Shown here: piece by piece, positions 17,964 to 33,644 of the stretch
Position numbering within the stretch: the stretch's first letter is position 1
How the letters are laid out: each line of letters begins with the position of its first letter
DNA from: Candidatus Omnitrophota bacterium
GTDB lineage: Bacteria > Omnitrophota > Gorgyraeia > 2-01-FULL-45-10
Direction: 5' to 3'
DNA: 33,644 nt
Assembly: GCA_026387165.1 (NCBI GenBank)
Contig: JAPLMG010000099.1
Location: 1 to 33,644, forward strand
Program-made: the position numbers and the translations under genes
The notes under the pieces: generated by a model
Databases searched by the model: none
Seen by the model: the letters and a program-made list of their open reading frames with translations, nothing else
What the model was told of the DNA's origin: nothing

Positions 17964-18033
17964 AAACACATTCCTCCATTGTTTGTAAATTCGTGACCTA
18001 CCTTTTTATTTCTAACTTTCTGTTAGTACTAAT

Positions 18034-18105: not shown

Positions 18106-21100
18106 TTACGCCGCGCTTAAAATCGCTCTCAGCGCCCGCTGATGCTCGCGCACCTCTTTATCGTAATATATCGGCACGGCCTTCGGTACATATATGAATA
18201 TTCTTCTCATCTCATCTCTCGAAACGCCGGGTATATCAGGCAATTCCCCGACGGTAAACAGCTCAAACAACGCCTCGTAGCTATTAGTGTCAACGAAGAC
18301 GCCGTTAATGTCGCCCAACTCCAGTATTACAAGCGGCGGGATAGCAGATCTTAAGGTTTCGTAATCCTTTATTTCACCTTTCCTGATCCTTAGTCCAACA
18401 TGTCCGGGCGTTCCACTAAATAAGGTAGATAGGCCGTTGACCTCTTCTGCCGTACGCGCAAACGCATGATCGACATATCCTTCCAGGCCAAGGGCCGAGA
18501 TGTACCGTTTCGCGGCATCGTCGTTTCTGACTCTCGGGTCGGTTATTGCCACAACTTCCTTAATAGGATCATCCCCCTTATCGTGTATATCCATCTTCTG
18601 CCATCTGGCGCGTATCTTGTCTCTCAAAGAATAGAGCATGCCCGATTCAACCACGCCTTGTGTCGTTATCGAGACAGCCTTATCCCTCTTTTCAAACAGG
18701 GTATTGAGAGCGGCACTATTGGCGTGAGCGAAGCTCGGGCTTATGGCCTTCGTGCGGCGCTCAAGATCGGCCTTCAGGGCCTCTATGCTGGCCGGCGCCA
18801 CTGCCGGGAGCAGCCGCTCGATCTCAGTGACTTTGGCCGTAAGATCACCGAGCGGTATTGAATCTATATTCGAAGCGTTTATTATCGCTATGTCGGCATG
18901 CGCTTCCCTGAACGCCTTGTCAGACAGTGCCTGGAGGTGCGCTATCGTCTCCCGGATGCCGGCGCCGGACCCTATGTCGAGCACCGCGCCGTATTTTATG
19001 CCGCGTCTCTTCGCCTCGGCCATGAGCTCGGCCGGATTTGACGACTTCATTACGTAGATTTCCGCGCTGCCATTAAATATCCTGTCAATTTCCCGCGCAA
19101 TGGCGGGTCTCTCAAGCGGCGGCACAGAGTCCCCCGGCATACCGACAATGTACGACTTTAGAGATTTCGGCTTCGCGGCTTCACCGGTCTTTATTACCGC
19201 CGAAGACCTCACGAACTCTGTATCCTCGTCTGCGACTATACTGTAATTCCCGGTCTGGGCGGTAACAAATAGATAAGGATTCCGGGCGTTCAATTCTCCG
19301 AGCGCCGTCTTTCCGTCGCCCGAAACTATTCGCGCTCTTCCTGATATCAAATTCAACGTATGATAGCTCTTAAACGTATCGAACTTGGCCGTCCGGCCTT
19401 TCTTAAGCTTCACGCTTTCGGCGTCGATGTTTCTGTCTATTTTTTTGCCATATTGATTCAACACCCACATTCCCAGCATTTCGACAGGCGCAGCCTCAAT
19501 AGCCTCGTCAAGACTAAAATCGACGGTCTGAAGATGTATCCTCCCCGATCTTATGCTCAATACGGAGTTGCATCTTATAGCAATGGTTATGCCGTCTCTG
19601 CTCCTTATCTTGCGTATAACTCTTAAGAGATCGCCACTCTTATGGTTTATGGGCAATTCCCGCAGTTCGTCCGCCAGGGCCTGCAATCGCCCGAAACGAG
19701 TGCCGAGTTGATAGTAATGCCACGGCTTCGGATAGCTCCGAAGCTTCACGGCGTCAAAAAATCTTCTGCCGGCCCTTTCTATCGCGCCTTCGCCGATGAG
19801 CGGCGTTATAGACGGGTCGTATTGTATATTTTTCGGATACTTAAGCTCGTAAGGCCGGGTGAACCGCTCCACGAATCTCGGCATCACCTCTAAATGCTCA
19901 GATCTCTCCACGCCTTCGCGCCTATATTCGGTCAGGCCCAGGACGTCGTTGCTCACGAGCACCTGTCCGTCGGCCTCATTGCCGCTTCCTATACCTATCG
20001 TAGGTATGGTAAGATGTTTTGATACCATCTCAGCCGTACCATCATATACCATCTCAAGAACTATGCTGAATGCGCCTGCTTCTTCCAGCGTGGCGGCGTC
20101 TTCGAGGAGTTTCATCATCTCTATCTTGCTGCCGCCGAATACGCGCGGCCTCCCGAACTGCGGCATGTAGCCGATGTGGCCCATGACGGGGATGCCCGCG
20201 CTAACGAGCGCCCTGACTATCCGGCCCATGTCTCTGCCGCCTTCCATCTTTACCGCATCGGCTCCGGCCTCTATCATGAGTCTCGCGCTGGCTAACGCCT
20301 CCTCGGGTGTATCGTATGAACGATACGGCATGTCGCCTATAACTACCGTCCTCGATCTATCGGCGCCTTCGGAGACCATCCTGATATGTTTTAACATCAT
20401 CTCCATCGTGGCGTAATTTGTCGTCGGATAACCGTACTTGACCATCGCGACCGAGTCTCCGACTAAGAGCATCTCGATGCCCGCGTTGCTGAATGCCCGC
20501 GCCGTTACGGCATCGTAGGCCGTAAGCATCGTTATCTTCTCGCCATTGGCCTTCAATTCCTGTATACGCCGTATCCTGTCGTACGCATCCTCTTCGGCGG
20601 GATAGGCCTTTTCACCGGATGCCGGGACGGACGCGAGTAATATCGGCTCGGCATTCTCTACCATCCTCTTCCCTGAGCGCCAGTTGAGCTGGAGCTCTTC
20701 GTCAACCAATCTCTTGTCTCCCAAAAGCGCCATCATGGCGCCTATATAAGTTCCGTGGCCGAACAATATTACGGTTTTCCCCTTATGCTCCCTGTTAACC
20801 ATGTCTAAAAATTTTCGCGCTCTGATAAGAAGATCCGCAAAGCTTTCTCCGCCCCGCGGCCTGACGTTCGCATCAAAATGTTCACGGTACCTGATCGCAA
20901 GCTTTTTGTCTTCTTCGGAAAGGTCCCGAGGAACTTTATTTTCCCATACCCCGAACGATATCTCGTTCGTCATCCTGTCCGTTATTACGGGAATCTCTCT
21001 GCCCGTCCTCTCTTTGACAAGTTTAGCGAACGCCGCCGCGGTATCTTTTGAGCGGCCGAGCCCGCTTGAGAGAATGACAGGCTCGTCGCCTGATCTTATC

Positions 21101-24100
21101 CTGCTCTCCAGCGCGGCGAATAATTTCCCGGCCGCTTCCACGGACTGCCTCATCCCAACTTCGTCGAGCTGATTCATCTCCCCGTCTACATCTCCCTGGA
21201 AGACATCCGTGATGGTATTGGCTCTTGTGCGGCCGTGACGGACAACCCACAGATCAACTTCGCTCTTTACGACAGGTCCTTCCGGCCCGTATCTGATCCG
21301 GCCGGTATTCGGGTTAACGGCTATTTTACCGTCCAGTCCCGCCAGCGGCGTCCAATCATCCGCAGCCTTAATACCCTTATCGGCGAGGAGCCGGGCGAAA
21401 ATATAGAAAGAGCCGGGGTCCGGCGCGTCACCGTCGTGATAAACATAGTTGAGGCCTCTCAGGCCGGCCTGCGCGGCAGTCTTAAGGACTCTCTCGTTGT
21501 CGTCCACAAAGAGTATCTCGTCCTCACTTATGCCCAATTTGCGGGAAGCCCGCTCTCTGGCTCTGGCAAAAAGCTCAACGTCGTCTTTTCCCAAATGCTC
21601 ATCGCACGTGAAGACGATAAGATCGTTATCGTCAAATATGCAGGGATAAGCTTCATTCAATTTCTTCAGTATAACGGCCGGATCCCCGTTCCACCGGCTG
21701 GAAAGCAATCCGAACTTTATCCCGTTCTGCTTAAGGAGTGAAAACATTGCGGCTACTTTCGCATTCGGGCCTCTTATCTCATACCGCAGCTCGAAAAGCT
21801 GTTCCGGAGTAAAGTCTCTCTTTAGGCCGAACCTTCTCAGCTCTTCGTTTACATAAGTGATATATTCTTCGGCAGAGACCAGGCCGCGCATGACTTTCTT
21901 CTCATATTCTTTATCGCCGTAACAATACAGAAGGCGCTCCAACTCCTCCGCCGCTATCTTTACACCGTAATCTTCCAGGCGCCTGGCCATCTTTATATAT
22001 CTGTCGCCGGGACATTTCAGGAGCACGCCGTCTATATCGAAGAATATCATCTTCGGCAGCTTCTCCTCTGCCGCGGGGTATTGCTTTTCACCGCTACTTT
22101 TGCCGGCGACGCGGGCTTTTAGATAGCTGATAGCTCTTTCCGTTTCGCTCTTCAAAATTGTATGGACGTCCTGTTTCCCGCCTATGCCGTCGAGCAGGGA
22201 TATCGTCAATTCACCGCCCAGATGGCGCCTGAAGCTCTCCAACCCGGGCCATATATTCTTTACAGTGGCCGACCTATCATAAATGGGCAGCCCTATCGCT
22301 TCCAGTAGCGAGAGGGTCCGCTCCAGCTCATTTTTTGAAATATAGCCTCTCGCGTAGGAGATATGGGTATCTATCGCCATGCCGACAGCCACGGCCTCAC
22401 CGTGATTGAGCCGGTGATCTGTCACCATTTCGAGCCTGTGGCCCCACTCATGCCCGTAGTCAAGCGGCCGGGCGAGCTTCGTTTCATACGGGTCGGTGCA
22501 TATCTGTCCCAGATGGGCCATTATGGTGCCCCAGATTATATCCTTCATCCTGCTCCCGGCTGACAGGTCATTATTCAGGACATCCTTGTAATGCCCTTCC
22601 ACTACTTCGAACAGGCCTCTATCCTTTATCAGGGATACTTTAACGACTTCAGCCATCCCGGAACGCATCTGCCTTGTATCAAGCGTCGACAGGATCGTCG
22701 GGTCTATTATCACGGTCTTCGGCGGCTGGAAGACGCCTAAGAAATTCTTCTGTCCGGCGTAATTTACGGCGTTCTTCGTCCCGACGCCCGCGTCGTCCTG
22801 CGCCAATAACGTCGAGGGTATGCGGATATGCTCTACGCCGCGGTGCAGTATACTCGCCGCGAAGCCCGCCATATCGAGGACGGCTCCGCCGCCCACGAGG
22901 ACCATCATCTCTTTCCTGTCGATGCCGAATTTTTCCGCCTCTCTTATGACCCTGTACACATGCCTCATGCCGGCCTTCATGTCTTCTCCGCCCGGCACGA
23001 CCATTATATGCGCGTTTATACCGTATCGTTCTGTATATGCTTTTATCTTCCCGGTCAGCGCCTTGCCCACTCCGCCGTCCACCACGAAGAACGTCTTTTT
23101 GCCGCCTATCTCGCCGGCCAAAAGTCCGTTGGATACGTCGAATACCCCGATGGATAATTTAACTTCGAAACTCTCATCCGGCCGGACACCGACTTTAAAA
23201 GCCCTCTCCGGATTCTTCTCCTTCGCCGGATAGGATTTTTCGCCGTCCTTCAGCAAGCTCAGGACAGGCTCAGGGCCGCTTGTGCCATAAATTAACTTCT
23301 CCCCTTTTCTTACATATATATCGGCGTCTTTGACCGCCGCATTGTCCGGCACCTCAAAGCTTCCGTCGTACGGGTCTTCAAATTTTACATTGAGGCGGCC
23401 GCGTATGATCACGTTTTTGCCTATCTTTATCTCTCTTCCGCCAAGATAGGCCATAGAAGCGCCCTCTATCCGCCAATTCCGGCCGACCTTCCCTTTTATA
23501 TCGTCCTGGTGGAGAGCGAAAGCGGAAGAAAATTCCAACGTGCTCTCTTCCGATACCTGCGCGTCAACGCCGGATTGAGCGAGCCATCTTTTGGCAAGGT
23601 TTGAAATGGCCTTCGCTACGGCAGCCGGCGAATCTTCGCCCGTCATCTCCTTAAAAGAAGCGAAGCATTCGGCGCGGTCGAGCGTGATATAAGATGCCGT
23701 CTTGGCCTGGCCGATGGCATCGAATACCAGGGATTCAAATTTATCTATCAGGCCGTCTGTTACTGCGCCATCTTTAAATATCTTCGCCTTTTTATTCCTG
23801 ACATAGCGGAACGGCGGCGGAGTTGCCGAGGCGAGAAAATCGTATGAATAGACAAAGCGCGAGATAGAACCGTATTCGTAGCCATTCCTGTCTCTTATAA
23901 CCCCGGCTGCCGGCTGATTATATTCCACCACAAAAGGTTCTCCTGTGATCGCGTCTTTTGCCGGCATGCCCAATCCTTCCCCGGGGCTTCTTTTGCGGAC
24001 TAAAACCGTGGTGTGGTCAGAATGTTTTTTTGAATGGTACCCGAGAAGCATTTTGTCTATGACCGGCGTCGGGTTGTCTATCTGGCAGTAAAGGAACGTA

Positions 24101-27100
24101 TCTATACCCCTCATCCCGGCCTCTCTCAAAGCGCTTACGGCGCTTACGGCGCCTCCGCCCGTTCGCGCTTTCACCGTGCGCATCGCGCGGTATAGCCCGC
24201 CGTGGCCATTGGCGGCCCTGAAGAAGACGCCGTCTCCCGCCATGGCCGGATTATCACTGCCCGCTTCACGCGCCGGCAAGCTCTCCTGTTTTATAAAGAT
24301 GACATTCTCTTTGCCCAGGCTGAGATAATTATTCGCGGCGAAATATTCACGCGTAGCGGTATCGTTAAGCTCTGACGTCATTATGAACCACGGGATTATG
24401 CTGCCGTAATGCTTTCCCGCCGCCAGTATCTCATCGGCCCTCGCCTCAAACAATGTCCTGGAGGTTACCGGCATGATGGGGTGCATCCCCTTCGGATAAT
24501 TTATCCCCGCCCTCGCCGCCATTCCGCCGGCGACAGTTATCACTCCGACCCTGCCGCTTCTCAATAATTCCTCGCCCGATTTTTCCATTTCGGAATTCTC
24601 TTCTTTATTATCCGGGAAGATGATATCCTGTGGAGCAATAAGGCCCGCATCTATCTCCTCTTTATCTATCACGGCAAATTCCGCATCGGCGACTTTTATA
24701 TTTTTAAGGACGATCCTGTGGCCGGCCTTCTCTTCGCCTGCCGCGCTTTCAGCAATTAATTGCGGAAGCGCACGGGATAGATCGACGCACCTTTCTATCG
24801 TACCAAAACCTTCCGGATAGAGCAGGCCGTCAAATGATGACGCCGCCCTGTCCATATCCCTTTCGGAACAATTCGGCGGGGATGTGCTTATATGGACCGT
24901 GGAGGGAATAACGCCGTCTTTATTAATAACCTCTTTGATGAAATCCGCTATCTGCCGGCTCTCCGCGGCATCCGTATCTATGTTGAATATTGCCTTGGTC
25001 CGGCGCGGCCTCGTCCCCACGCTGAAATAATCCTGACTGCGGCACATTCTGTTCTCAAGGCCGAGTTTTTCAAGTTCCTCATCCGGCTCTTCCGGACCTG
25101 CCCTGCCGCGACCGAATGAGACCCATATGTGGTGCATCAACCGGCCTTTTTCGGCTATTGTCTTCGCGATCCTCGCGTCCAAGTCGCCTATCTCCTGCGT
25201 ATCCATGTGGTCATCTATAAATATCTGATGATTATCGCTGCTTGAGACATCTGCGCGCTCTACGGCCTCCTCAAGATATTCTCCCGAATCAGAATGACTA
25301 TCGAACACATATACGCTGTAACCGGCATTCGTGCGTATCACTACGTGATATTCCATATCTGTCGGGGCCGCGCCTTCTTTCTGTGAGCGCTTCACGTCTT
25401 CCCATGTTCCGAGGATAAGCCGCCTGCCTTTGACGACCTCGCGGTACCAGTGATTATTTTCGGCATCCCACCTGTAATGCGCCTTATCATAATCGTCCAG
25501 CTGTAGTCCGGATGCGTGAGGATCCGGATATTTTAACAGGGCTCGGCCTTCGTCACCTGCAGGATAGGCTTTTCCGACGCCCGCAAGTTCGGAAACTTCC
25601 CCGGCGGGAATAGCTTTCTCTGCCGGATGGAATTTGAAACTGAACGAATAGAACGAATCTATAAATCTTTCTGCCGTCTCCCGCAATTCGGAGGGAGCGT
25701 CATCTTTATGTACGTCCAGGAAATGCTTAAAGAAAGTTTTCGCTCTGGACCTAAAGCCGGTCTCATCGAAGAAGCGGTCGACCTCGGCTTTCAGTTCCGG
25801 GTGAGCGCATAGATAGCGGTAGAGCGGCATATCGACATCGATAAAATTGCTCCTCTCCTCCATCGCCTCTTCTTTGTCGGTGCCCATCGTGTTTCCGTGG
25901 TTCAATTCGTGGGCAACTTTTTCGGCGGTGATCCATGGTATAGCCCTGGGATATCTATCTCTGTACATTATGAGAGTTTCGATGAATTTTTGGTCGAGCG
26001 TAAGGTGCACGCTGCCGTTCACTATCGTCTTTCCGACCAGGTGGGGTTTGTAAGGTATGACGTGGACCGGGATGGGCGGGCCGCGCTGCGGTATTATTTT
26101 GGAGACGTCTAAAAGCGCCACGCGCAATAGGTCGGCCAGGTCCTGAACTTTTTTAGGAAGACCATTCTTTACCTCAACCCCGCTATTTTTATATATCGTG
26201 ATGCCATCGTATGAAAGCACTCTTTCCCTCATACAGCTATTTTTGCTCGCGATAAATCCTCCGGCTTGGTCATAGTAATAGCCTTCTCTGTCGAGCGATT
26301 CCTGCCACGGCATGCCGGGGATCCTCGATATCCATACGGGCAGTTCCGGTTCTCCCTGTGCGGGATAACCCTTCTCTCCGGACTTTCCCCGCTTTGCCCT
26401 CTTCCATGAATCGGTCACAGCTACGATATCCGGATCGATATTTTCAGTGAGCAGGTAGTCAAAATATGACGGCAGGCTTATCCTTTGCAGCACATCTCTA
26501 ACAAAGCCTTCCGGCGCTTTTATGCTATCCCTCGAGGCTCTTCTATACGCGCTCGACGCGGGTTTCGCGAGCATGAGCGCCTTCAAGTCATAACAATCGC
26601 TCCACTTATCCTGCAGCGCGTAATTTCCTTCGATTATGACTACGGTATCGCGCGTTATCTTAACGGCCTGCTTAAGGCTTAACTTGCCGCCGTTAAGTTC
26701 CGCGTATAGATCTGCGAGATCGAGCGAGATCTCGGGCTCGCCGCTCTTTCTGAAACGCCGCAGCTTCTCGAGCACGTCCTGCTCAAATTTCTCTTCCCTT
26801 AATGAGATACGCTTCCAATTGACGCTAGTAGCGGCTCTACCCATCTCGTCGGCGTATTTAGGATATCTGTCATTGTAGCGGTCACGCAGGAACCAGTCGA
26901 CCCTGACGATCTCGGCTTTCTGACCGGACGATCCCAGTACGGATCTCAGCTCTTTTGCCATCGTCGTCTTCAATGAGCCGGAATTCCCGTCTATCGCTAT
27001 GACGAACGGGCCATCTCTCTTCTGGGCGCGCCATTTCGCTATCTCATCTAATATATATTCTTTTGTATCCCTGGCATCCCTGACAACATTACCGCCGCTG

Positions 27101-30100
27101 AATTTCCCGAGGCATTCTTTATACAATTTACTTAACATGCCCTGTATCTTGATATGGGCTGCCGCGGCTTTAACCGTTCTCTTTAAGGCCGCAAAGCTCC
27201 CCTCTCTTCTCTTCGCGCCGCCCGCTGCCGAGCCCTTCATATTTCCGGCCGGATATGCCTTCTCGCCGGAGAGGGGTCTTCGCACAAGTATGCAGGACCC
27301 TATGGGGCGGCGCTCCCCGAGATTTTTTGTATCAGATTTTTTTCTCGCGCTCGCCCATGTCGTATAGCTTATTCCTTTATCCTTCCCATCTCTTTGAAAT
27401 GTCTGCACGTCGGCGCTCGAGCCTAAAAGAACCGCGTCGGTCACACCCAGATCTTTCAGAACGTCTATGACATCGGCTATGCGGGCCTCGTTATCTCTTG
27501 CCGGAATCCCGGATAGGTCTATCCGGACGAGCTTGCCGTCCTTATTGTATCCCATCGCTGAAAATGCCATCTGCTGATCGGCTGGCCATAGCAGGTCGTT
27601 GCCCTGCCTCGGCGGCCTTACGCCAAATTTAAGCTCCTGCATCATGCTTTGACCGTTAATGAGAAGCGGCGAGCCGGCTATACCATTATGTATGGGAAGA
27701 TCACTTACCGGTTTACCGTCCCTCAGGCCTATTTCATATACGCCTCTTTTGTCTCTGTCAAAACTTAATACCCAAAATCTGCCGCTCAACGGCACGTATT
27801 CCTGCTGGAATAATCCGCGCGCGCCGGCTGATTTTGCGATGACCTCTCCGCCCTTTATTATAAGGCTTGTTTGATCCCAGAACCCGCCCTGCGTTCCGCT
27901 GAATGCAAGAACGATATTCTCTTTATCCTGCGCGCCATCTACATACTTCTCTATGACCTTGCCGCCGGGCAGCGCTCCTGGAACATTCATCGGACGAGAT
28001 ATCATGTCGCGGGAGCGCAGGCCTTCATCTATTTCCTGGCTTATATCTACTTTGGCGGGATCGATAATGAACGCCTCTCCCTGAACGTCCACATCGCCCC
28101 TCTTGAGGGATAGCCCCATCTTTTCCACGCCGCCGCATATGGCCGCTGTTTTTTTAGACAATCGCTCGCGCACCGCTTCAAAATATTGCCTGTCGGCGTA
28201 CTTACACATCTCATTGAACTGGTCTATCTGGACCTGTACCGGTAAAACCCCCTGAGCTATATCGCCCGCTATATTCGCGGTGAGCACGGCCATAAAGGAC
28301 TCGAAGTCTATCCCGGCTTTGTCGAGATCGCGCAGCAGATCATCGATGTATCCGGCGGCCTTCTGCACATCCCGGAAGGGGCGGATCTTTACATCCGCCA
28401 GATATATGTCGGCCAATATGAAATGATTTTTGATGAGTATCCTTAAGAATTCCTTTTCATAAGATGGGATCTCAAAGCCTTTCGAGCGCAATTCTTTTAT
28501 CACGGCATCTTCAAATATTTCGGCGCCCCTCTCTGGATGATCAAAGATATCTAGCTTCCTGCCTCCGACAACTGCGCCTATGTCGGCCTTTCCTATGTCA
28601 TGCACCATAGGAATGAGGTCCATCACACGGCTGTTCCTGACGTCCTTTTTTACGGCCCGCGCAAGCGAATCGTGAACCTTTTTCATCACGCCGAAGTATG
28701 CTTCTTTAGAACCGTCTTTTATCGCCGCGCCGGACATTGCCTCTTTTGTCATGCGCATGAGGTAGCCATAATCCTCTTTTATAAGCGCGCGCACGCCTCT
28801 TATCACCAGAGCCGTATGATGGTAATGCGTCCTCGCGTATCCTTTTCCCGTTGGCATGCGCCGCATCTTATGGAAGACAGGCAGTTCACTGATGAGGCCC
28901 CACAGCTCGGCAGGGCTGATATATTTCACGGAACGCATATCTCCTTTTATAGGAGGCAACGGTGAACCGGGAGTCTCTGAATATGGGCCCTCAAGCGCCT
29001 TTCCGGCCGGATAGGCCTTCTCGCCGGAAACACCGGATAACTTTGTATCCCCTTTCCTTCCACGCTGGGACCGGAGAAACTCGTCAAGAAGCTGTGTGCC
29101 TATCGCGTAGTAGGCCAGAGTATGCTTGCCGCTCGGGTCCTGGCTCAGGCGGTTTGGCGCGTCCGTGATAAAATGTGTGGCCTCGGCAAAGAGGGCTTTC
29201 TCCAGCCACAGGGGTTCATCTTTTAAAAGTTCCATAAGGCGCGGCTGATTACGCAGCATTTCCGGCAGGCGGCGCCTTACCTCAAGGAAATTGGCAACCG
29301 CGCTCTTTGAGGTGTGATACTTTATATCGAAAGCGAATGTTCCGCCCTCCTTGCGCACCGATATGTCAAAAAGGTTATTGCGCACGATCTCCAGGAGAAA
29401 TGAGTGCAGGATCTTTCCGAGCTCATAGGTAAGGTCTATTCTCGACGGGGAGTTTCCCGGAAGGTCAACGCCGCGCACGTCAAAAAGCCGGAAATTGCCG
29501 TCGCCCATCCTCATTACATTTCTTAATAGGAGGTCGCCATGCGCGTATTTAAGGATGGAGCGCGGCTTAAGCCGCTCGATCAGTCCGTGATCGGCCTTTA
29601 CCTCCGATATCAGGCGCGGAAGGTTCGTGTGATCGACACCGTTGATCCTGATGACCGGAGCCTTCGACAGCTCTTCAAACATATAAGAGATATCGTCGTA
29701 TCGCGCATTCTCTATGGCAAACGGACGGCCCGATATAAGCTTGTCATAGACATCTCCCTCTTTTTTCGTCAATAGCCCGAACCTGTAGTCTACTCTCGCG
29801 AGGTGGACCTTTTGGACATAATCTACGGGCACTTCAAGGTTACCCCGCGAATAGAGGTGGCGGCAGAACTGATCTATCATGCTTTCGAGGTCGTCCAGGA
29901 AAGGCTGCGCTCCGCCGGAAGCGTGCTCGAGAAAATAGAAAGGCAGCGGCTTGCCTCCTTCGAGGTACTGCATACTGTAGAAGGCGAGTTCGTTCGTCTC
30001 ATGATATTCGTACACCTCCGGTATCATCGCCGCGCCTTCGGGGCCGAGCGACTGCTTCAGCTCCTTAAGCCTTTTATACTGCGCCCTGAGCCACGGAATG

Positions 30101-33015
30101 CCGTTCGATCCGACCCCTGCCCAGGTGGAATGTTTTACTATAACCTGCCTCCCCTGCCTGTCCCTCGCCAGAAATGTGTCGGCGCTCGATCCGCCGGTAG
30201 TGTACGGCTTGATGATCTCATACCGGTCAGAGATCTCTTTAGGGACTTTTATGCCTGACGGCTGCAGTTGCGCGGAATACGCGTTCTTTCTTGAGGCCCC
30301 TACCGGCCCTGTGAACCAGCCGATATCTTCTTTGAGCCCCAACTCCCGCTTCAACTTATCCGTCCTCAGTCCGCCTTTTTTTGGGCGCCTGGCTTTTCTA
30401 TGCATATCATCTGAATTACAGGCGGTCAAACGCGATCTGTCAAATTTCAGGATATCGGCCAATCTATCGGCAATTTCATACCTGTTAAGATATTCCGCTC
30501 CGCCTACGTGATAGATCCCGACTTTACCCTTAGAGACCAACTCTTCGATTATTTCGGCTAAGCTCTCCGCGGCGACAGGATTGGCGTAGATATCCACAGG
30601 AAGCTTGGCCTCTCCTCCTGCCTCAACTGTCTTCAAAAGCCCCATAACGAATCTCGACCGCAAGCCTAAGATCAGCGGGGCTCTTACTATCAGATAATCG
30701 TCAAGCAGGCTTTTGACAACACCCTCAGACTCTAACTTCGTCCTGCCGTAAACATTGACTGGCGACGGACTATCCTCTTCGGAATAAGGGCCGTTCTCAC
30801 CGTCGAACACTTGATCGGTGGAGATATAAACCATTTTTGCCCCTACGGCTTTACAGGCCAGAGCTACATTTCTCGCGCCGTTTACAATTACTTTATGGGC
30901 CTGTGCGCTGTGTTCCTCGCAGTAATCCACATCCGCTAAAACGGCCGTGTGCACTACGACTTTAGGCCTTATTGAATTGAACAGGTCGAGCACCTGTCTT
31001 CTGTTAGTTATATCCAGCTGAAGCAGCTCTCCCTTCTCTGTCGTATGATAGGTGCCGAGCGCCGTATGTTTTTTGGATAATTGAGCGAGGGCGGCTTCCC
31101 CTAAAAATCCGGATGAACCTATAACCAGAAAATCCGCCTTGCTCTCCTGCCGCGGCCGCGCTTTTTGCGGATGAGTTAAAAGGGAGCGTAAAAATTCTTC
31201 GACCCCGGCGGGATCGCGCATTTCCGAACGCTTCCCGGGATCCTGCGCCGCGAAGCCTTCGTAGAGATCGCGGTAGTTCCCGGCCCACTGCTCCACAAGA
31301 GCCTTCATTTTTGCGGACTTTCCCTGATGGTCTTCGATACCCGCGACAGCATCGGCAAGAGCCTCCTTAAAACGTTCTCCGTACTTCGCGAGCCTTGCCT
31401 CTTCCGGCACAGCCGGGTCGGCGTCGAAATACGCGGCCGTCGCGAGATAATACTGCCCGCTCTTCAATACCGATTCATATCTGTCTTTCCTGTTCGTGAG
31501 CACTGTAACGTATGGACGTTCGCTCTTGGCTGAATCGAACTTCGGCAGGATAATCAGATACGACGTATCTTTATCTTTAAGTAGTTTTGTAAGGCCCTTC
31601 GTGTGGAATCCTCCCGTGACGAGCGCCGCGATATTGCGGCCTTCCTGCCTCATCCTCTTTATCGTATTTTCGAGAATGACGGAGTCCCTCTTCCGGGCAG
31701 TTTCATAGAATTTAAGCGCCTCCGGAATATCTGACAGTATATTATTAAGATCGCAGTAACGCGCCGTCCTTGTCTTATATTTCAAGGAGAGCTCTTTTAT
31801 TAAGCTCTCTATCTCCCCGGCCGAACCTAAAAGGCCCATATCCTCTTTAAGATACCCGAAGTCTTCGTTTGTAAGCTTTATTTCGAATAGGCCTTTTATT
31901 GAGAACGCGTACCTTGAAAGCCTGTAGAGTCTTCTCTGGTCATCATTCGAGAATAACTTTTCCCTCACGGCGGATTCGAAGGCCTTCGCCTCTTCGAATA
32001 TCGAGATCGGATCTATGGACTCGTAGAGCGTAATGTACTCCGCGTAGGCTGCCAGGTTCCTGTATTTAGCCGTCTCAACGCCCCATTTGCGGGAGATATT
32101 CCCAAGGAAGAGATAAAATTCTCCGACAGATATCCTGCCCATCTTGAAATCGACCGACTTCAACATAAGCTCTTCGAGGCCATTTTTGTCCGATCTTTCG
32201 CTCAATTCGCCTATCAGAAGCTCGCGCTCATGGTTCGCTTTATCGAAGTCTATTCTTTTTTCAAGCTCGAGGCTCTTAACGAATTTCGAGAGGCTCATGT
32301 ATGATCTATAGTCGGCTCCTATCCTGGTGGCAAGCTCTCTGACCGACTGCCATCTCTCTTTGAAGGCCGTGGTATCATCACCTCCGGCCGCCGGACTATC
32401 CTCGAGCGCTCGAAGTTCGGGCGAATAGACCTTATCTTTAAGGCCTTTCACGGCATAGAGAAGGCCGTCTATATCTTTCCTGACGGATTCGTTCATCTCA
32501 TAAATGCGGCGGAACTCTTCCACGTTCTTCTTATAGAGCGCCCTGTCCTCTATACCGTACAGCGCTATATTTTTTCCTGAAGTTATCGAGAATAACTCTG
32601 CCGCTGACATAAGCCCTCTTGCCATCAGATCCTTAGCCGCGCTATCGCGCACCTTCTGATCCGGAAAAGTCTTCAAAAGAGAGGTGTCTATGTAGCCGCT
32701 TGACCCTTCTATGGCGACTACGCTGAGATCGTAATTTGTGACGAGCGAATTGAGGATCGAAACGATCGATTCCTGCGCATTCAATGAAGCGTGGGCGTCC
32801 TGTATGTTTATGATCGTATTGGGTATCGGGTATTGAGTATTGGGTTGAGGGGCTTTATAGGACTCTTGGGAGGAGACGAGGTTCTTCGGCACGGATATCC
32901 CGGCAAGGCCGCCTTGGGCAAAGACGATATCCTGGCTCAGGAATGTGATCAGTAAAGGTGCCGCTATTATCTTTATCCAGATCTTGCTTTTGCTCATAGA
33001 CATTATCTTATACAA
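18106..33015 (-). CDS. Giant exported polyprotein-like enzyme mosaic (4969 aa)
   Basis: Uninterrupted 14.9-kb ORF; the true start is probably ATG 33003 or 32997. Signal peptide KIWIKIIAAPLLITFLSQDIVFA. At least 12 recognisable modules, mostly separated by GEKxYPA. Family C-terminus and TAA stop. Confidence 0.92.
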   Translation of the reverse strand: MYKIMSMSKSKIWIKIIAAPLLITFLSQDIVFAQGGLAGISVPKNLVSSQESYKAPQPNTQYPIPNTIINIQDAHASLNAQESIVSILNSLVTNYDLSVVAIEGSSGYIDTSLLKTFPDQKVRDSAAKDLMARGLMSAAELFSITSGKNIALYGIEDRALYKKNVEEFRRIYEMNESVRKDIDGLLYAVKGLKDKVYSPELRALEDSPAAGGDDTTAFKERWQSVRELATRIGADYRSYMSLSKFVKSLELEKRIDFDKANHERELLIGELSERSDKNGLEELMLKSVDFKMGRISVGEFYLFLGNISRKWGVETAKYRNLAAYAEYITLYESIDPISIFEEAKAFESAVREKLFSNDDQRRLYRLSRYAFSIKGLFEIKLTNEDFGYLKEDMGLLGSAGEIESLIKELSLKYKTRTARYCDLNNILSDIPEALKFYETARKRDSVILENTIKRMRQEGRNIAALVTGGFHTKGLTKLLKDKDTSYLIILPKFDSAKSERPYVTVLTNRKDRYESVLKSGQYYLATAAYFDADPAVPEEARLAKYGERFKEALADAVAGIEDHQGKSAKMKALVEQWAGNYRDLYEGFAAQDPGKRSEMRDPAGVEEFLRSLLTHPQKARPRQESKADFLVIGSSGFLGEAALAQLSKKHTALGTYHTTEKGELLQLDITNRRQVLDLFNSIRPKVVVHTAVLADVDYCEEHSAQAHKVIVNGARNVALACKAVGAKMVYISTDQVFDGENGPYSEEDSPSPVNVYGRTKLESEGVVKSLLDDYLIVRAPLILGLRSRFVMGLLKTVEAGGEAKLPVDIYANPVAAESLAEIIEELVSKGKVGIYHVGGAEYLNRYEIADRLADILKFDRSRLTACNSDDMHRKARRPKKGGLRTDKLKRELGLKEDIGWFTGPVGASRKNAYSAQLQPSGIKVPKEISDRYEIIKPYTTGGSSADTFLARDRQGRQVIVKHSTWAGVGSNGIPWLRAQYKRLKELKQSLGPEGAAMIPEVYEYHETNELAFYSMQYLEGGKPLPFYFLEHASGGAQPFLDDLESMIDQFCRHLYSRGNLEVPVDYVQKVHLARVDYRFGLLTKKEGDVYDKLISGRPFAIENARYDDISYMFEELSKAPVIRINGVDHTNLPRLISEVKADHGLIERLKPRSILKYAHGDLLLRNVMRMGDGNFRLFDVRGVDLPGNSPSRIDLTYELGKILHSFLLEIVRNNLFDISVRKEGGTFAFDIKYHTSKSAVANFLEVRRRLPEMLRNQPRLMELLKDEPLWLEKALFAEATHFITDAPNRLSQDPSGKHTLAYYAIGTQLLDEFLRSQRGRKGDTKLSGVSGEKAYPAGKALEGPYSETPGSPLPPIKGDMRSVKYISPAELWGLISELPVFHKMRRMPTGKGYARTHYHHTALVIRGVRALIKEDYGYLMRMTKEAMSGAAIKDGSKEAYFGVMKKVHDSLARAVKKDVRNSRVMDLIPMVHDIGKADIGAVVGGRKLDIFDHPERGAEIFEDAVIKELRSKGFEIPSYEKEFLRILIKNHFILADIYLADVKIRPFRDVQKAAGYIDDLLRDLDKAGIDFESFMAVLTANIAGDIAQGVLPVQVQIDQFNEMCKYADRQYFEAVRERLSKKTAAICGGVEKMGLSLKRGDVDVQGEAFIIDPAKVDISQEIDEGLRSRDMISRPMNVPGALPGGKVIEKYVDGAQDKENIVLAFSGTQGGFWDQTSLIIKGGEVIAKSAGARGLFQQEYVPLSGRFWVLSFDRDKRGVYEIGLRDGKPVSDLPIHNGIAGSPLLINGQSMMQELKFGVRPPRQGNDLLWPADQQMAFSAMGYNKDGKLVRIDLSGIPARDNEARIADVIDVLKDLGVTDAVLLGSSADVQTFQRDGKDKGISYTTWASARKKSDTKNLGERRPIGSCILVRRPLSGEKAYPAGNMKGSAAGGAKRREGSFAALKRTVKAAAAHIKIQGMLSKLYKECLGKFSGGNVVRDARDTKEYILDEIAKWRAQKRDGPFVIAIDGNSGSLKTTMAKELRSVLGSSGQKAEIVRVDWFLRDRYNDRYPKYADEMGRAATSVNWKRISLREEKFEQDVLEKLRRFRKSGEPEISLDLADLYAELNGGKLSLKQAVKITRDTVVIIEGNYALQDKWSDCYDLKALMLAKPASSAYRRASRDSIKAPEGFVRDVLQRISLPSYFDYLLTENIDPDIVAVTDSWKRAKRGKSGEKGYPAQGEPELPVWISRIPGMPWQESLDREGYYYDQAGGFIASKNSCMRERVLSYDGITIYKNSGVEVKNGLPKKVQDLADLLRVALLDVSKIIPQRGPPIPVHVIPYKPHLVGKTIVNGSVHLTLDQKFIETLIMYRDRYPRAIPWITAEKVAHELNHGNTMGTDKEEAMEERSNFIDVDMPLYRYLCAHPELKAEVDRFFDETGFRSRAKTFFKHFLDVHKDDAPSELRETAERFIDSFYSFSFKFHPAEKAIPAGEVSELAGVGKAYPAGDEGRALLKYPDPHASGLQLDDYDKAHYRWDAENNHWYREVVKGRRLILGTWEDVKRSQKEGAAPTDMEYHVVIRTNAGYSVYVFDSHSDSGEYLEEAVERADVSSSDNHQIFIDDHMDTQEIGDLDARIAKTIAEKGRLMHHIWVSFGRGRAGPEEPDEELEKLGLENRMCRSQDYFSVGTRPRRTKAIFNIDTDAAESRQIADFIKEVINKDGVIPSTVHISTSPPNCSERDMDRAASSFDGLLYPEGFGTIERCVDLSRALPQLIAESAAGEEKAGHRIVLKNIKVADAEFAVIDKEEIDAGLIAPQDIIFPDNKEENSEMEKSGEELLRSGRVGVITVAGGMAARAGINYPKGMHPIMPVTSRTLFEARADEILAAGKHYGSIIPWFIMTSELNDTATREYFAANNYLSLGKENVIFIKQESLPAREAGSDNPAMAGDGVFFRAANGHGGLYRAMRTVKARTGGGAVSAVSALREAGMRGIDTFLYCQIDNPTPVIDKMLLGYHSKKHSDHTTVLVRKRSPGEGLGMPAKDAITGEPFVVEYNQPAAGVIRDRNGYEYGSISRFVYSYDFLASATPPPFRYVRNKKAKIFKDGAVTDGLIDKFESLVFDAIGQAKTASYITLDRAECFASFKEMTGEDSPAAVAKAISNLAKRWLAQSGVDAQVSEESTLEFSSAFALHQDDIKGKVGRNWRIEGASMAYLGGREIKIGKNVIIRGRLNVKFEDPYDGSFEVPDNAAVKDADIYVRKGEKLIYGTSGPEPVLSLLKDGEKSYPAKEKNPERAFKVGVRPDESFEVKLSIGVFDVSNGLLAGEIGGKKTFFVVDGGVGKALTGKIKAYTERYGINAHIMVVPGGEDMKAGMRHVYRVIREAEKFGIDRKEMMVLVGGGAVLDMAGFAASILHRGVEHIRIPSTLLAQDDAGVGTKNAVNYAGQKNFLGVFQPPKTVIIDPTILSTLDTRQMRSGMAEVVKVSLIKDRGLFEVVEGHYKDVLNNDLSAGSRMKDIIWGTIMAHLGQICTDPYETKLARPLDYGHEWGHRLEMVTDHRLNHGEAVAVGMAIDTHISYARGYISKNELERTLSLLEAIGLPIYDRSATVKNIWPGLESFRRHLGGELTISLLDGIGGKQDVHTILKSETERAISYLKARVAGKSSGEKQYPAAEEKLPKMIFFDIDGVLLKCPGDRYIKMARRLEDYGVKIAAEELERLLYCYGDKEYEKKVMRGLVSAEEYITYVNEELRRFGLKRDFTPEQLFELRYEIRGPNAKVAAMFSLLKQNGIKFGLLSSRWNGDPAVILKKLNEAYPCIFDDNDLIVFTCDEHLGKDDVELFARARERASRKLGISEDEILFVDDNERVLKTAAQAGLRGLNYVYHDGDAPDPGSFYIFARLLADKGIKAADDWTPLAGLDGKIAVNPNTGRIRYGPEGPVVKSEVDLWVVRHGRTRANTITDVFQGDVDGEMNQLDEVGMRQSVEAAGKLFAALESRIRSGDEPVILSSGLGRSKDTAAAFAKLVKERTGREIPVITDRMTNEISFGVWENKVPRDLSEEDKKLAIRYREHFDANVRPRGGESFADLLIRARKFLDMVNREHKGKTVILFGHGTYIGAMMALLGDKRLVDEELQLNWRSGKRMVENAEPILLASVPASGEKAYPAEEDAYDRIRRIQELKANGEKITMLTAYDAVTARAFSNAGIEMLLVGDSVAMVKYGYPTTNYATMEMMLKHIRMVSEGADRSRTVVIGDMPYRSYDTPEEALASARLMIEAGADAVKMEGGRDMGRIVRALVSAGIPVMGHIGYMPQFGRPRVFGGSKIEMMKLLEDAATLEEAGAFSIVLEMVYDGTAEMVSKHLTIPTIGIGSGNEADGQVLVSNDVLGLTEYRREGVERSEHLEVMPRFVERFTRPYELKYPKNIQYDPSITPLIGEGAIERAGRRFFDAVKLRSYPKPWHYYQLGTRFGRLQALADELRELPINHKSGDLLRVIRKIRSRDGITIAIRCNSVLSIRSGRIHLQTVDFSLDEAIEAAPVEMLGMWVLNQYGKKIDRNIDAESVKLKKGRTAKFDTFKSYHTLNLISGRARIVSGDGKTALGELNARNPYLFVTAQTGNYSIVADEDTEFVRSSAVIKTGEAAKPKSLKSYIVGMPGDSVPPLERPAIAREIDRIFNGSAEIYVMKSSNPAELMAEAKRRGIKYGAVLDIGSGAGIRETIAHLQALSDKAFREAHADIAIINASNIDSIPLGDLTAKVTEIERLLPAVAPASIEALKADLERRTKAISPSFAHANSAALNTLFEKRDKAVSITTQGVVESGMLYSLRDKIRARWQKMDIHDKGDDPIKEVVAITDPRVRNDDAAKRYISALGLEGYVDHAFARTAEEVNGLSTLFSGTPGHVGLRIRKGEIKDYETLRSAIPPLVILELGDINGVFVDTNSYEALFELFTVGELPDIPGVSRDEMRRIFIYVPKAVPIYYDKEVREHQRALRAILSAA
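19720..20570 (-). other. panB: Ketopantoate hydroxymethyltransferase (PanB) domain
   Basis: ITMLTAYD, LLVGDS, GDMPYxSY, AVKMEGG, VMGHIG, IPTIGIGSG, DGQVLV. Confidence 0.92.
20630..21260 (-). other. Histidine phosphatase (phosphoglycerate mutase-like) domain
   Basis: VVRHGRT, SSxLxR, EISFGVWE, GES, FGHG. Confidence 0.88.
21390..22060 (-). other. HAD-family phosphatase domain
   Basis: FFDIDGVL (motif I), LLSS (motif II), GK (motif III), LFVDD (motif IV). Confidence 0.88.
22110..23200 (-). other. 3-dehydroquinate synthase-like sugar-phosphate cyclase domain
   Basis: GGGAVLDMAGFAA, RG, PSTLLAQDDAGVGTKN, RPLDYGHEWGHRLE, HGEAVAVGM. Confidence 0.88.
23280..24620 (-). other. UDP-N-acetylglucosamine/UDP-sugar pyrophosphorylase (UAP/UDPGP family) domain
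   Basis: AGGMAARAG..PKG, IPWFIMTS, ANGHGG, QIDNP, VEY, KFESLVFD, RAECFASFK. Confidence 0.85.
24770..25400 (-). other. Arginase/deacetylase-fold (UPF0489-like) domain
   Basis: DSH, IFIDDHMD, NIDTD and ISTSP metal-site-like motifs. Confidence 0.5.
25630..26340 (-). other. Zincin-like HExxH module
   Basis: RGPP..VHV upstream, AHELNH at ~25897-25914, and a downstream EE. Confidence 0.5.
26400..27050 (-). other. Uridine kinase-like P-loop domain
   Basis: IAIDGNSGSLKTT, VDWF, IIEGNY, RxxRD. Confidence 0.8.
27280..28100 (-). other. Phosphodiester glycosidase (NAGPA)-like domain, divergent
   Basis: AGSPLLING, SAMGYNKDGKL, LGVTDAVLLGSS (cf. AxNLDGGGS) and RPIGSCILV. Confidence 0.5.
28170..28900 (-). 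other. HD-domain metal-dependent phosphohydrolase
   Basis: HT..., HDIGK, HPERGA, NH and a distal D. Confidence 0.75.
29060..30230 (-). other. APH/choline-kinase-like phosphotransferase domain
   Basis: GGSSADT glycine loop, IVKH, MQYL, HGDLLLRN, LFDVRG, YELGK. Confidence 0.78.
30330..31140 (-). other. dTDP-4-dehydrorhamnose reductase (RmlD-like) SDR domain
   Basis: GSSGFLG, LDIT, HTA..DVD.CE, YISTDQVFDG, PVNVYGRTKLESE, ARRP. Confidence 0.9.
31490..32815 (-). other. Conserved N-terminal domain with a TIKI/TraB/ChaN-like motif order
   Basis: IQDAH, VAIEG, LYGIED, KRD, LVTGGFH, SY. All are also conserved in the ORF at 16428..17963. Confidence 0.55.
32816..32843. repeat. Four tandem heptamers (GTATTGG/GTATCGG/GTATTGA/GTATTGG) inside the CDS
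   Basis: Seen directly. Encodes PNTQYPIPNT, which is absent from the paralog. Confidence 0.7.
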
Positions 33016-33075
33016 TCGTCATTGCGAGCCCGAGCGAAGCGCATGGTACATGGCTCCGCTCCTCGCAATGACGAT
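33015..33075. repeat. Intergenic palindromic element with 14-bp perfect terminal inverted repeats (REP/MITE-like)
   Basis: ATCGTCATTGCGAG (33015-33028) and CTCGCAATGACGAT (33062-33075). Confidence 0.75.
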
Positions 33076-33083
33076 AAGTAACG

Positions 33084-33644
33084 TTACGCCGCCGCTAACG
33101 CGGTTCTCCTGGCGTAGTAGTTCCTGTTTAATTCTCCGTAGTCCTTAGGCTCCGCCTTAGGTATCAGCATGATAAACCTTAACGCTTTGTCATAAGAATC
33201 TAATTTTACCATCGGTATATTCGGCGGATCTTTTCCGGCGGCTATATCCAATGCCACGGATAACATCTCGAGTATCTTTACATCGAGATGTATTGACGGG
33301 TCTTTATTATCCTTAATGAAGGCTTCCAGTTCAGCGGGGTCTATTGCCGCGATAAAAGCCTTCGCTTCCGTAGGCGTGCTCCTTAACGAGTCGAAGCTTG
33401 ACGATGCAACGGTTCCTTTGGACGCCAGGATGACTACATTCGAGAGCTTCGTATTGGCCTTATCGGCTTCCTTCAATACGGAAGCCGCTATCTCTTTTGA
33501 GTTGGATCTTACAAATACCACGTTATCAAGGCCCATCGAGCGGAGGATATCCGGGATAGATTCGATCTGCTGTATGACCGGGTTCATCGCCTGATGCTGG
33601 AGGCTGCCTGTTTCGTTGTAGCCCGGTATCCAGTCTGTCTCGAG
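33084..33644 (-). CDS. 3' end of another member of the same protein family (partial; runs off the window)
   Basis: The frame is open to the window edge (LETDWIPGYNETGSLQHQAMNP..). It ends with the family signature FIMLIPKAEPKDYGELNRNYYARRTALAAA and a TAA stop. Confidence 0.85.
   Translation of the reverse strand, partial: LETDWIPGYNETGSLQHQAMNPVIQQIESIPDILRSMGLDNVVFVRSNSKEIAASVLKEADKANTKLSNVVILASKGTVASSSFDSLRSTPTEAKAFIAAIDPAELEAFIKDNKDPSIHLDVKILEMLSVALDIAAGKDPPNIPMVKLDSYDKALRFIMLIPKAEPKDYGELNRNYYARRTALAAA

Follow-up and report, generated by a model that had tools for sequence, protein, structure and literature searches.

The locus described here raises the question of whether a giant bacterial protein carries, at its own N-terminus, the enzyme that cuts it at a recurrent short motif. 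It lies in a 33,644-nucleotide stretch of DNA from Candidatus Omnitrophota bacterium (GenBank assembly GCA_026387165.1, contig JAPLMG010000099.1). This whole stretch, contig C293 of a genome of 1.93 Mb in 308 contigs that is 77% complete, is called the window below. The large genes of the window are all on the minus strand. Two of them, one for a protein of 4969 amino acids (aa) and one that appears split into open reading frames (ORFs) of 513 aa and 1160 aa, begin with related domains, here called head domains, and carry copies of the motif GEKxYPA further on. An earlier annotation made from the sequence alone (the first-pass annotation) had taken the head domain and the motif for a paired protease and cleavage-site system. 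The observation is partly confirmed, in that the proposed fold is supported and the paired system of protease and site is not. The reading that we prefer, at a probability of roughly 0.6, is that the head domain would be a generic and optional hydrolase cassette of the Ere/TIKI type on Sec-exported giant proteins and not a dedicated partner of GEKxYPA. The two copies of the domain and the ORFs that they head are:

18106-33015, minus strand: 4969-aa ORF (ORF list)
31486-32814, minus strand: N-terminal head domain of the 4969-aa protein, residues 68-510 (BLASTP, AlphaFold2 model, structural matches)
16428-17969, minus strand: 513-aa ORF (ORF list)
16440-17765, minus strand: second head-domain copy, residues 69-510 of the 513-aa ORF (BLASTP, AlphaFold2 model)

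The claim that the 4969-aa protein and the split gene have an N-terminal domain of about 450 residues in common is borne out by BLASTP, in which residues 68-510 of the former and 69-510 of the 513-aa ORF are 35% identical (E-value 1e-90). The shared domain is about 445 residues long, and the stretches IQDAH, EG, G(I/A)E, KRD and VTGGFH are all present in both copies.

Predicted fold of the head domain

The input for folding was an alignment of 41 sequences, to which this genome contributed its six copies and the databases 35 short relatives. For residues 60-520 of the 4969-aa protein the AlphaFold2 model has a mean predicted local distance difference test score (pLDDT) of 86.5 and a predicted template modelling score (pTM) of 0.77; that of the second copy, from the 513-aa ORF, has a pLDDT of 91.3 and a pTM of 0.82. 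The first model has five core strands (strand 1 being model residues 8-14) with an all-helical stretch of about 300 residues between strands 3 and 4, and in the second model also there are only helices between core strands 3 and 4. Both models were aligned structurally to 48,161 PDB cluster representatives. The five best matches of the first model were HopBA1 (5t09, Z score 9.1, 159 residues aligned), EreC (6xcq, 9.1, 158 residues), 2qgm (8.7, 147 residues), 2rad/Bcr135 (8.6, 144 residues) and ChaN (2g5g, 8.4, 181 residues). The second model gave the identical five structures at the top, with Z scores of 10.3, 10.0, 9.6, 9.3 and 8.9, and also matched RRSP (5w6l, chain residues 3891-4058) with a Z score of 6.4 and PMT (2ebf) with 6.2. 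In a second look seeded with Foldseek, the top six structures were all members of the TIKI/Ere/ChaN superfamily. As far as the available part of the source goes (PMC6254334), the structures of the TIKI superfamily include PMT, HopBA1, Bcr135 and ChaN, the site-specific endopeptidases Tiki and RRSP belong to it, and PMT is an inactive member without the set of two His and two Glu residues. The TIKI/TraB-like fold suggested by the first-pass annotation is predicted, then, by two models, and the argument holds because five family members agree across both of them, the individual Z values being moderate.

At the level of sequence, PF04187 (ChaN) matches four of the 41 family members, the best with an E-value of 0.092, and the three matches seen in detail map to the R...GGFH region. 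PF01963 (TraB) is absent from this genome at E ≤ 10 and from 61 Omnitrophota genomes at E ≤ 1e-5, control genomes being positive. Every named database match of the N-terminal domain is a 'Candidatus Omnitrophica/Omnitrophota hypothetical protein, partial', and in the ESM Atlas only unnamed Omnitrophota clusters were matched. Because the sequence methods miss significance, the domain is filed as a new family, and its modelled fold places it in the TIKI/Ere/ChaN superfamily as a family that is unassigned in Pfam and is a member of neither the TraB nor the Ere family. As this superfamily also has esterases and a haem binder, 'protease' cannot be deduced from the fold.

Invariant residues

The residues that are conserved in the domain are distributed along it as follows:

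32791-32799, minus strand: D73-A-H75 (IQDAH motif), immediately behind strand 1; corresponds to EreC E47/H50
32704-32709, minus strand: E103-G104, end of strand 2; counterpart of EreC E78, Bcr135 E113 and RRSP E3930
32548-32556, minus strand: G154-I-E156, end of strand 3, with the second conserved acidic residue (family alignment)
31645-32544, minus strand: all-helical insert of about 300 residues (158-457) between the sheet halves (DSSP of both models)
31684-31692, minus strand: K442-R443-D444; R443 corresponds to the basic residue EreC R261/RRSP R4001
31603-31617, minus strand: T467-G-G-F-H471, after strand 4; H471 is the counterpart of EreC H289/RRSP H4030

Conservation was counted over 186 database relatives and the 513-aa ORF, aligned to the family profile. 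D73, H75, Q81, E103 and G104 are invariant in all 182 relatives aligned at these positions and G154 is invariant in 185 of 185, with position 156 being Glu in 157 and Asp in 28 of the latter. Within the helical insert E252, which sits in a conserved E-K-x-I-D-F stretch, is invariant (175/175), as are Y437 and R443 in the last helix of the insert (164/164); position 444 is Asn in 126 and Asp in 36 of the same 164 relatives. G468, G469, H471 and P491 do not vary in any of 162 relatives, nor does Y502 in any of 161. The arrangement H..E..GxE..R(N/D)..GxxH that had been proposed for the domain is therefore present, the D/H, E, R and GGxH elements being invariant in 162-182 relatives, and its spacings are like those of EreC. 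H75 and E103 are 28 residues apart, as are R443 and H471, and the same distance of 28 residues separates H50 from E78 and R261 from H289 in EreC. For this enzyme the available part of PMC7979712 gives E47, H50, E78, R261 and H289 as the catalytic residues and a metal-independent reaction with a His-activated water. The spacing from His to Glu is 28 also in Bcr135 (H85-E113) and RRSP (H3902-E3930) in that portion of PMC6254334 to which we refer above. Judged by where the structural alignments begin, H75 falls on about residues 49-50 of EreC and about 84-85 of Bcr135 (arithmetic from the alignment ranges), and according to DSSP of the models D73, H75, E103 and H471, and not R443, follow the C-terminal ends of core strands.

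As a separate observation, residues ~230-310 of the insert gave weak, non-significant profile matches to the EF-hand pairs of troponin C (E 0.03-0.1), which cover two G-K-I-S-x-x-E-F/Y-like segments.

Distribution of the domain and its leaders

An exhaustive HMMER scan of 1.84 billion cluster representatives found the head domain in 7,896 clusters at E ≤ 1e-3 and in 2,107 at E ≤ 1e-30. In the best 150 of the 7,896 the match lies inside the first ~150 residues in 149 cases, in proteins of up to 7,834 aa. The domain is spread phylum-wide, 49 of 61 sampled Omnitrophota genomes being positive with 1-33 matches each, and it is present in all five genomes of the same genus. In the 61-genome sample the shortest ORF with the domain has about 400 aa, most have ~520 or more, and the longest has 23,964 aa; stand-alone proteins of ~520 aa are found as well. 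The genome of the window has six copies, heading ORFs of 4970, 6014, 3758, 3279, 1272 and 525(+1177) aa. The 3279-aa ORF (C81:1405-11241) contains, in addition, an intein splicing domain at residues 1145-1398 (PF14890, E 1.4e-21).

The place of the domain is behind an export-type leader. All six domain ORFs of the genome have a hydrophobic leader with an A-x-A-type end 30-60 residues ahead of the domain, and these leaders probably act as export signals. The leader of the 4969-aa protein, and that of a further protein of the window in which the domain is lacking, are:

32917-33003, minus strand: leader of the 4969-aa protein resembling a signal peptide, residues 5-33 (start rich in Lys, then a hydrophobic core and V-F-A ahead of Q-G-G)
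148-3666, minus strand: 1172-aa ORF (ORF list)
3508-3633, minus strand: residues 12-53 of the 1172-aa protein, a leader and spacer that run straight into cargo, the head domain being absent (homology to the leader of the 513-aa ORF)

The leader of the 1172-aa protein is 64% identical to that of the 513-aa ORF over 42 residues (E 8e-13), and its next 65 residues are 28% identical (E 0.002) to the start of the frame that follows the TAG codon ending the 513-aa ORF; the 465-residue head domain is missing between leader and cargo. As the same leader and cargo start thus occur without the domain, the domain is an optional cassette that can be inserted or deleted. A 7317-aa ORF from the same genus (G001:C5:18300-40250) has a near-identical signal peptide (...FLAQDIVFA) followed by a different first domain; its DHQS module is 51% identical to that of the window, and it has four tandem 96-residue repeats and no GEKxYPA.

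Separate occurrence of domain and motif

The first-pass annotation had observed that canonical copies of the motif are found solely in genes with the domain. Within the window this stands, GEKxYPA being absent from the 1172-aa protein and from the protein of a 2175-aa ORF, also on the minus strand; genome-wide it does not. Four of the six domain ORFs of the genome are without the motif (6014 aa on C251, 3758 aa on C68, 3279 aa on C81 and 1272 aa on C7), and the gene on contig C264 has the motif, an N-terminus with a signal peptide of its own and no head domain (the N-termini of the motif genes of C62 and C199 lie off their contigs). Further afield, none of the 150 best relatives of the head domain carries GEKxYPA, and among the 88 proteins of at least 2000 aa in this set the window's protein alone has any motif that recurs 5-6 times between unrelated flanks. 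In the five same-genus genomes, all of which have the domain, the motif pattern does not occur. With domain ORFs that are free of the motif and, on C264, a motif gene that is free of the domain, what holds in the window is true of the genome neither for domain genes nor for motif genes, and the proposed paired system fails the co-occurrence check. A domain that is found throughout the phylum, beside a site found in one species, does not owe its conservation to GEKxYPA. A co-fold of the head domain with a 35-residue stretch round linker copy 1, which was run without controls, had a score of 0.00 and gave no call.

Nature of the GEKxYPA motif

In a Pfam scan the 4969-aa protein is a series of unrelated enzyme modules, its first 600 residues having no Pfam match. 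The modules and the copies of the motif are given here in their order along the protein, followed by the copies in the two ORFs downstream; all are on the minus strand, and residue numbers are those of the 4969-aa protein.

Residues 630-895: RmlD-type reductase (Pfam)
29005-29025, minus strand: GEKAYPA copy 1, residues 1331-1337 (pattern scan)
27247-27267, minus strand: GEKAYPA copy 2, residues 1917-1923 (pattern scan)
Residues 2005-2145: uridine-kinase-like module (Pfam)
26359-26379, minus strand: GEKGYPA copy 3, residues 2213-2219 (pattern scan)
25555-25620, minus strand: degenerate copies AEKAIPA (residues 2466-2472) and VGKAYPA (residues 2481-2487) (pattern scan)
Residues 2809-3010: UDPGP (Pfam)
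23224-23244, minus strand: GEKSYPA copy 4, residues 3258-3264, just before the DHQS module (pattern scan)
Residues 3338-3582: 3-dehydroquinate synthase, DHQS (Pfam)
22072-22092, minus strand: GEKQYPA copy 5, residues 3642-3648, its end lying 7 residues ahead of the HAD module (pattern scan, Pfam)
Residues 3655-3851: HAD (Pfam, match begins at profile position 2)
Residues 3922-4099: histidine phosphatase (Pfam)
20596-20616, minus strand: GEKAYPA copy 6, residues 4134-4140, its end lying 8 residues ahead of the PanB module (pattern scan, Pfam)
Residues 4148-4364: PanB (Pfam, match begins at profile position 4)
15945-15965, minus strand: GEKSYPA in the 1160-aa ORF (pattern scan)
10891-10911, minus strand: GEKKYPA in an 868-aa ORF (pattern scan)

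GEKxYPA is the commonest recurrent 6-mer among the long ORFs of the genome. It has 17 matches in the 66 stop-to-stop ORFs of at least 800 aa (114,186 residues), against a mean of 0.025 and a maximum of 1 in 200 shuffles. A degenerate DNA pattern gave 16 matches in this genome (reversed control 0), none in the five same-genus genomes and at most one in 55 further relatives (reversed control 0-1); the contigs with the motif other than the window are C62 (five copies), C199 (three) and C264 (one). For the commonest 20-base form of the motif, a set of 185,579 species genomes has 17 single matches and metagenome contigs have 21, each with one copy and in an unrelated context; these collections may exclude the window's own genome. 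The motif is a feature separate from the head domain and was seen in multiple copies in this species only.

Across the 16 copies the codons vary synonymously (GGC/GGA/GGT, GAG/GAA, AAG/AAA, TAT/TAC, CCC/CCG and GCG/GCC/GCA). Synonymous differences are found at six of the seven codons and at four of them through synonymous change alone, the third base of the last codon being left open in the pattern. The residue before the motif is Ser or Asp in 15 of the 16 copies, and the flanks are unrelated save for duplicated segments common to C62 and C199. Because the codons vary synonymously and the flanks are unrelated, the motif is maintained at the level of the peptide, and from its sequence and position it reads as an inter-module motif marking the seams of formerly separate enzymes. 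The PanB, DHQS and RmlD modules (window 19816-23244 and 30300-31140) are extra copies, with stand-alone paralogs in the same genome on contigs C170, C168 and C297 (identities of 45-50% for PanB, 31-33% for DHQS and 32% for RmlD), and a stand-alone panB is present in five of five same-genus genomes. Copy 4 adjoins a region homologous to stand-alone DHQS, and the motif stands only a few residues away from N-termini of fused modules that look native. The borders between head and RmlD and between HAD and histidine phosphatase are without the motif, and for the 841-aa stretch from HAD through phosphatase and linker to PanB no close relatives were found at E ≤ 1e-20 among proteins of 462-1472 aa.

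Other Omnitrophota giants headed by the domain have a different recurrent motif in unrelated flanks, G-[AG]-R-[LM]-[AS] (GARLA, GARLS, GARMA). In 126 relatives it has 49 matches against 5.9 +/- 2.7 in shuffles, concentrated in 17 proteins; carriers are relatives P0050, P0069, P0095, P0100, P0103, P0113, P0137, P0142 and others. In this genome there are only two occurrences in long ORFs.

What purpose GEKxYPA serves can be read in two ways that leave the head domain aside. That the motif stays uncut, as a structural or docking linker or as the footprint of the joining and shuffling of modules, is a serious possibility, which we hold tentatively. The motif replaces the stop/start junction of genes that were apparently once separate and of which stand-alone paralogs persist in the genome, its presence in multiple copies in this genome alone points to a young origin, and C62 and C199 share duplicated segments of motif plus flank; the TGEKP linkers conserved between C2H2 zinc fingers offer an analogy. 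As a pure DNA scar it is nevertheless unlikely, the flanks being mostly unrelated and the codons synonymously variable, so that some selection on the peptide would be needed. We regard it as rather unlikely that GEKxYPA is the processing site of a species-peculiar enzyme acting in trans, either another protease or a specialised head, while heads in general do something else. Such an enzyme would explain the motif in a gene lacking the domain (C264), and would suit a highly non-random peptide-level motif at module borders, as it would the occurrence of the GARLA-type motif in other lineages. However, no candidate enzyme was found, the sole other protease-like signature (an HExxH sequence in the 4969-aa protein, described below) has no paralog in the other motif ORFs, and cleavage itself is putative.

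Possible role of the head domain

If the head domain is the generic, optional hydrolase that we favour, the leader would export the N-terminus and the head would work outside the cytoplasm, where D73, H75, E103, R443 and H471 may be grouped in space to form the site of an active hydrolase that would cleave ester or peptide bonds, probably without a metal, a water activated by His/Glu attacking the substrate as in EreC. Its most likely role would be at the cell envelope, in the maturation or release of the giant protein to which it belongs or of sibling giants. This role is favoured because the domain always stands at the very N-terminus of otherwise unrelated cargo. Action on substrates of the envelope or of prey would be a close second.

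A number of points weigh against this reading. Foldseek alone finds no match in the PDB at E ≤ 1e-3 (EreC is matched with an E-value of 0.029 and a probability of 0.95), the Z scores of 8.4-10.3 are little above the 7-8 that unrelated models can reach according to the tool, and unrelated methyltransferases come next with Z scores of 8.0-8.6. None of the sequence methods brings the link to the superfamily to significance. The two copies of the window have no match in Pfam or NCBIfam, and when the family alignment, entire or cut into N- and C-terminal slices, was compared by hhalign with a YbaP/TraB profile the probabilities were a non-significant 10-36%. That profile was a shallow one of 12 enterobacterial sequences at 65-82% identity; the best 120 matches were all close relatives. 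The matches of a sequence search of the PDB (translin, troponin C and DsbA) were at chance level, all with E > 0.03, and were rejected, nothing relevant being found. With regard to the site, the grouping of the five residues in space is predicted, and the first acidic residue is an Asp at -2 from the His where EreC has a Glu at -3. The leaders are taken for export signals from a reading of the translations. The cargo enzymes need the cytoplasmic cofactors NAD(P), UTP and ATP, which is odd for exported proteins, so that either they act inside another cell or the topology proposed here is wrong. Catalysis, substrate and self-processing of the head are predictions only. Finally, HopBA1 and ChaN are members of the superfamily that are not known as hydrolases.

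The last of these points belongs with the idea that the head is a non-catalytic module for binding or anchoring (ChaN-like binding of a cofactor or haem, or an envelope anchor) that has kept the ancestral fold. The top structural matches include ChaN and HopBA1, and the weak Pfam matches are to the ChaN family, but the full Ere-type set is invariant in every aligned relative, in contrast to the inactive PMT, in which the 2His/2Glu set is lacking (PMC6254334, in the part cited above), and we consider this idea improbable. Slightly less probable again is a bolder version of the maturation role, in which the head would be a general hydrolase of exported 'polyproteins' that cuts its own or sibling chains at sites that drift from lineage to lineage (GEKxYPA here, GARLA-type sites elsewhere). 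If it were true, sets of metabolic enzymes would be set free at the surface of the cell or would enter a host or prey cell, and the head family would be a long-sought enzyme for the processing of giant proteins, with a specificity that co-evolves species by species. Least probable of all is self-processing, with the head as a protease that cleaves the polyprotein of which it is part at GEKxYPA and frees the enzyme modules, for although the fold and intact catalytic set fit a superfamily with site-specific endopeptidases (Tiki, RRSP), the motif stands at module boundaries in the manner of viral polyprotein sites, and in the window the motif-bearing genes are the domain-bearing genes, some module boundaries have no motif and the surveys of the relatives, of this genome and of its genus reported above find the domain without the motif and, on C264, the motif without the domain.

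The apparently split gene

The second gene of the window is described here with the features that bear on its extent.

12894-16376, minus strand: 1160-aa ORF (ORF list)
10249-12855, minus strand: 868-aa ORF (ORF list)
16428-16430, minus strand: in-frame TAG ending the 513-aa ORF (contig comparison)
12926-12935, no strand: unbridged join; the contigs of the public runs X1, X2 and X3 break off at 12925/12935 or begin at 12936, and their loose ends differ

The first-pass annotation had described this gene as split. The 513-aa and 1160-aa ORFs are indeed in one frame, a single TAG apart, and the frame is open beyond the TAG. In contigs of runs X1 and X3, which are public freshwater-sediment runs of which one may be the window's own source, there is C and not A at 16430, so that the codon reads GAG (Glu) and the two ORFs become one. 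In four same-genus genomes related domains are found in unbroken ORFs of 1764-4897 aa. Because the public contigs read GAG and the same-genus ORFs are unbroken, the TAG is probably an error or a minor variant. The link of this gene to the 868-aa ORF does not hold up as well. The 1160-aa and 868-aa frames overlap at 12894-13218, with the join inside the overlap, and no contig of the three public runs crosses 12926-12935. Since the join is unbridged, the link is unproven and the 868-aa piece, with its copy of the motif, may not be part of the domain-bearing gene. A search of 36 genomes of the same family for orthologs of the second gene's cargo gave just two matches, both weak and partial. An assembly problem or strain variation is likely at 12926-12935 and at 16430.

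Other features of the window

Between linker copy 3 and the degenerate copies, at residues ~2220-2465 of the 4969-aa protein (window ~25800-26350), there is a module with an H-E-x-x-H sequence (A-H-E-L-N-H). The module, which may be a zinc protease, is without a Pfam match and without a paralog among the other long ORFs of the genome. Upstream of the 4969-aa gene a gap of 68 bases (33016-33083) separates it from the upstream ORF (33084-33644) and contains an inverted repeat with arms of ~13 bases and a loop of ~35 bases, which could be the terminator of the upstream gene or a regulatory hairpin.

Comparison with known systems

In the available part of West-Roberts et al. (2023) it is an open question whether giant proteins are cleaved post-translationally, the proteases discussed being C39 and S8, and Seymour et al. 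(2023; PMC10066038), in the part available, describe the giant ORFs of Omnitrophota as poorly annotated. The same portions of these two papers, supplements aside, make no mention of TraB, Tiki or erythromycin esterase. Linker and polyprotein are likewise unmentioned in the accessible text of West-Roberts et al. (2023) and of a 2026 bioRxiv preprint (10.64898/2026.06.07.730766), as is TraB in that of the preprint. A literature search, supplements aside, found no paper that joins Omnitrophota with polyprotein. Against this background the head domain provides a testable handle on the biogenesis of giant proteins, standing as it does behind the export-type leader of hundreds to thousands of proteins with five invariant residues, and the TIKI/Ere/ChaN superfamily would gain a large unnamed family with a novel helical insert of ~300 residues. 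GEKxYPA, as a rare short inter-module motif at peptide level that is multi-copy in one species, makes the idea of a 'bacterial polyprotein' testable.

The closest likeness of the head domain is to the Ere enzymes (EreA-D, Bcr135/Bcr136; 6xcq, 2rad/3b55, 2qgm). The alpha/beta cores are alike (Z scores of 8.6-10.0 over 144-158 residues), the sizes are similar (~400-450 residues), both have extra helical material between the halves of the core, and H50, E78, R261 and H289 of EreC correspond to H75, E103, R443 and H471 of the head domain at identical spacings. The two differ in that there is no detectable sequence similarity and that the insert of the head domain is much larger (~300 residues) and unrelated. 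The head domain, moreover, stands behind a signal-peptide-like leader and has giant cargo fused to it, while the Ere enzymes are cytoplasmic and free-standing.

The Tiki/TraB/PrgY/GumN proteins (PF01963) share with the head domain the same logic of GxxH, E, E, R-N and GxxH, the TraB counterpart set in Escherichia coli YbaP being H41, E67, E157/E159, R228-N229 and H252. Tiki and PrgY have secreted peptides or proteins as their substrates and act outside the membrane. TraB proteins have a length of ~260 aa and no large helical insert, and the head domain falls outside PF01963.

In its overall design the 4969-aa protein resembles the MARTX toxins, in that a very large exported protein consists of unrelated enzyme modules with short linkers, and the RRSP module of MARTX has the TIKI fold and matches the second model (Z score 6.4) over the stretch with its catalytic residues. 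In MARTX, however, processing is carried out by a cysteine protease domain and the TIKI-fold module is a cargo effector. In the present protein the TIKI-like domain forms the N-terminal head and metabolic enzymes (RmlD, UDPGP, DHQS, HAD, PanB) make up the cargo; repeats-in-toxin regions were not seen. The match in both organism and architecture is with the 'multi-enzyme metabolic' giants of Omnitrophota, which have signal peptides and are described in the accessible part of the preprint cited above (10.64898/2026.06.07.730766).

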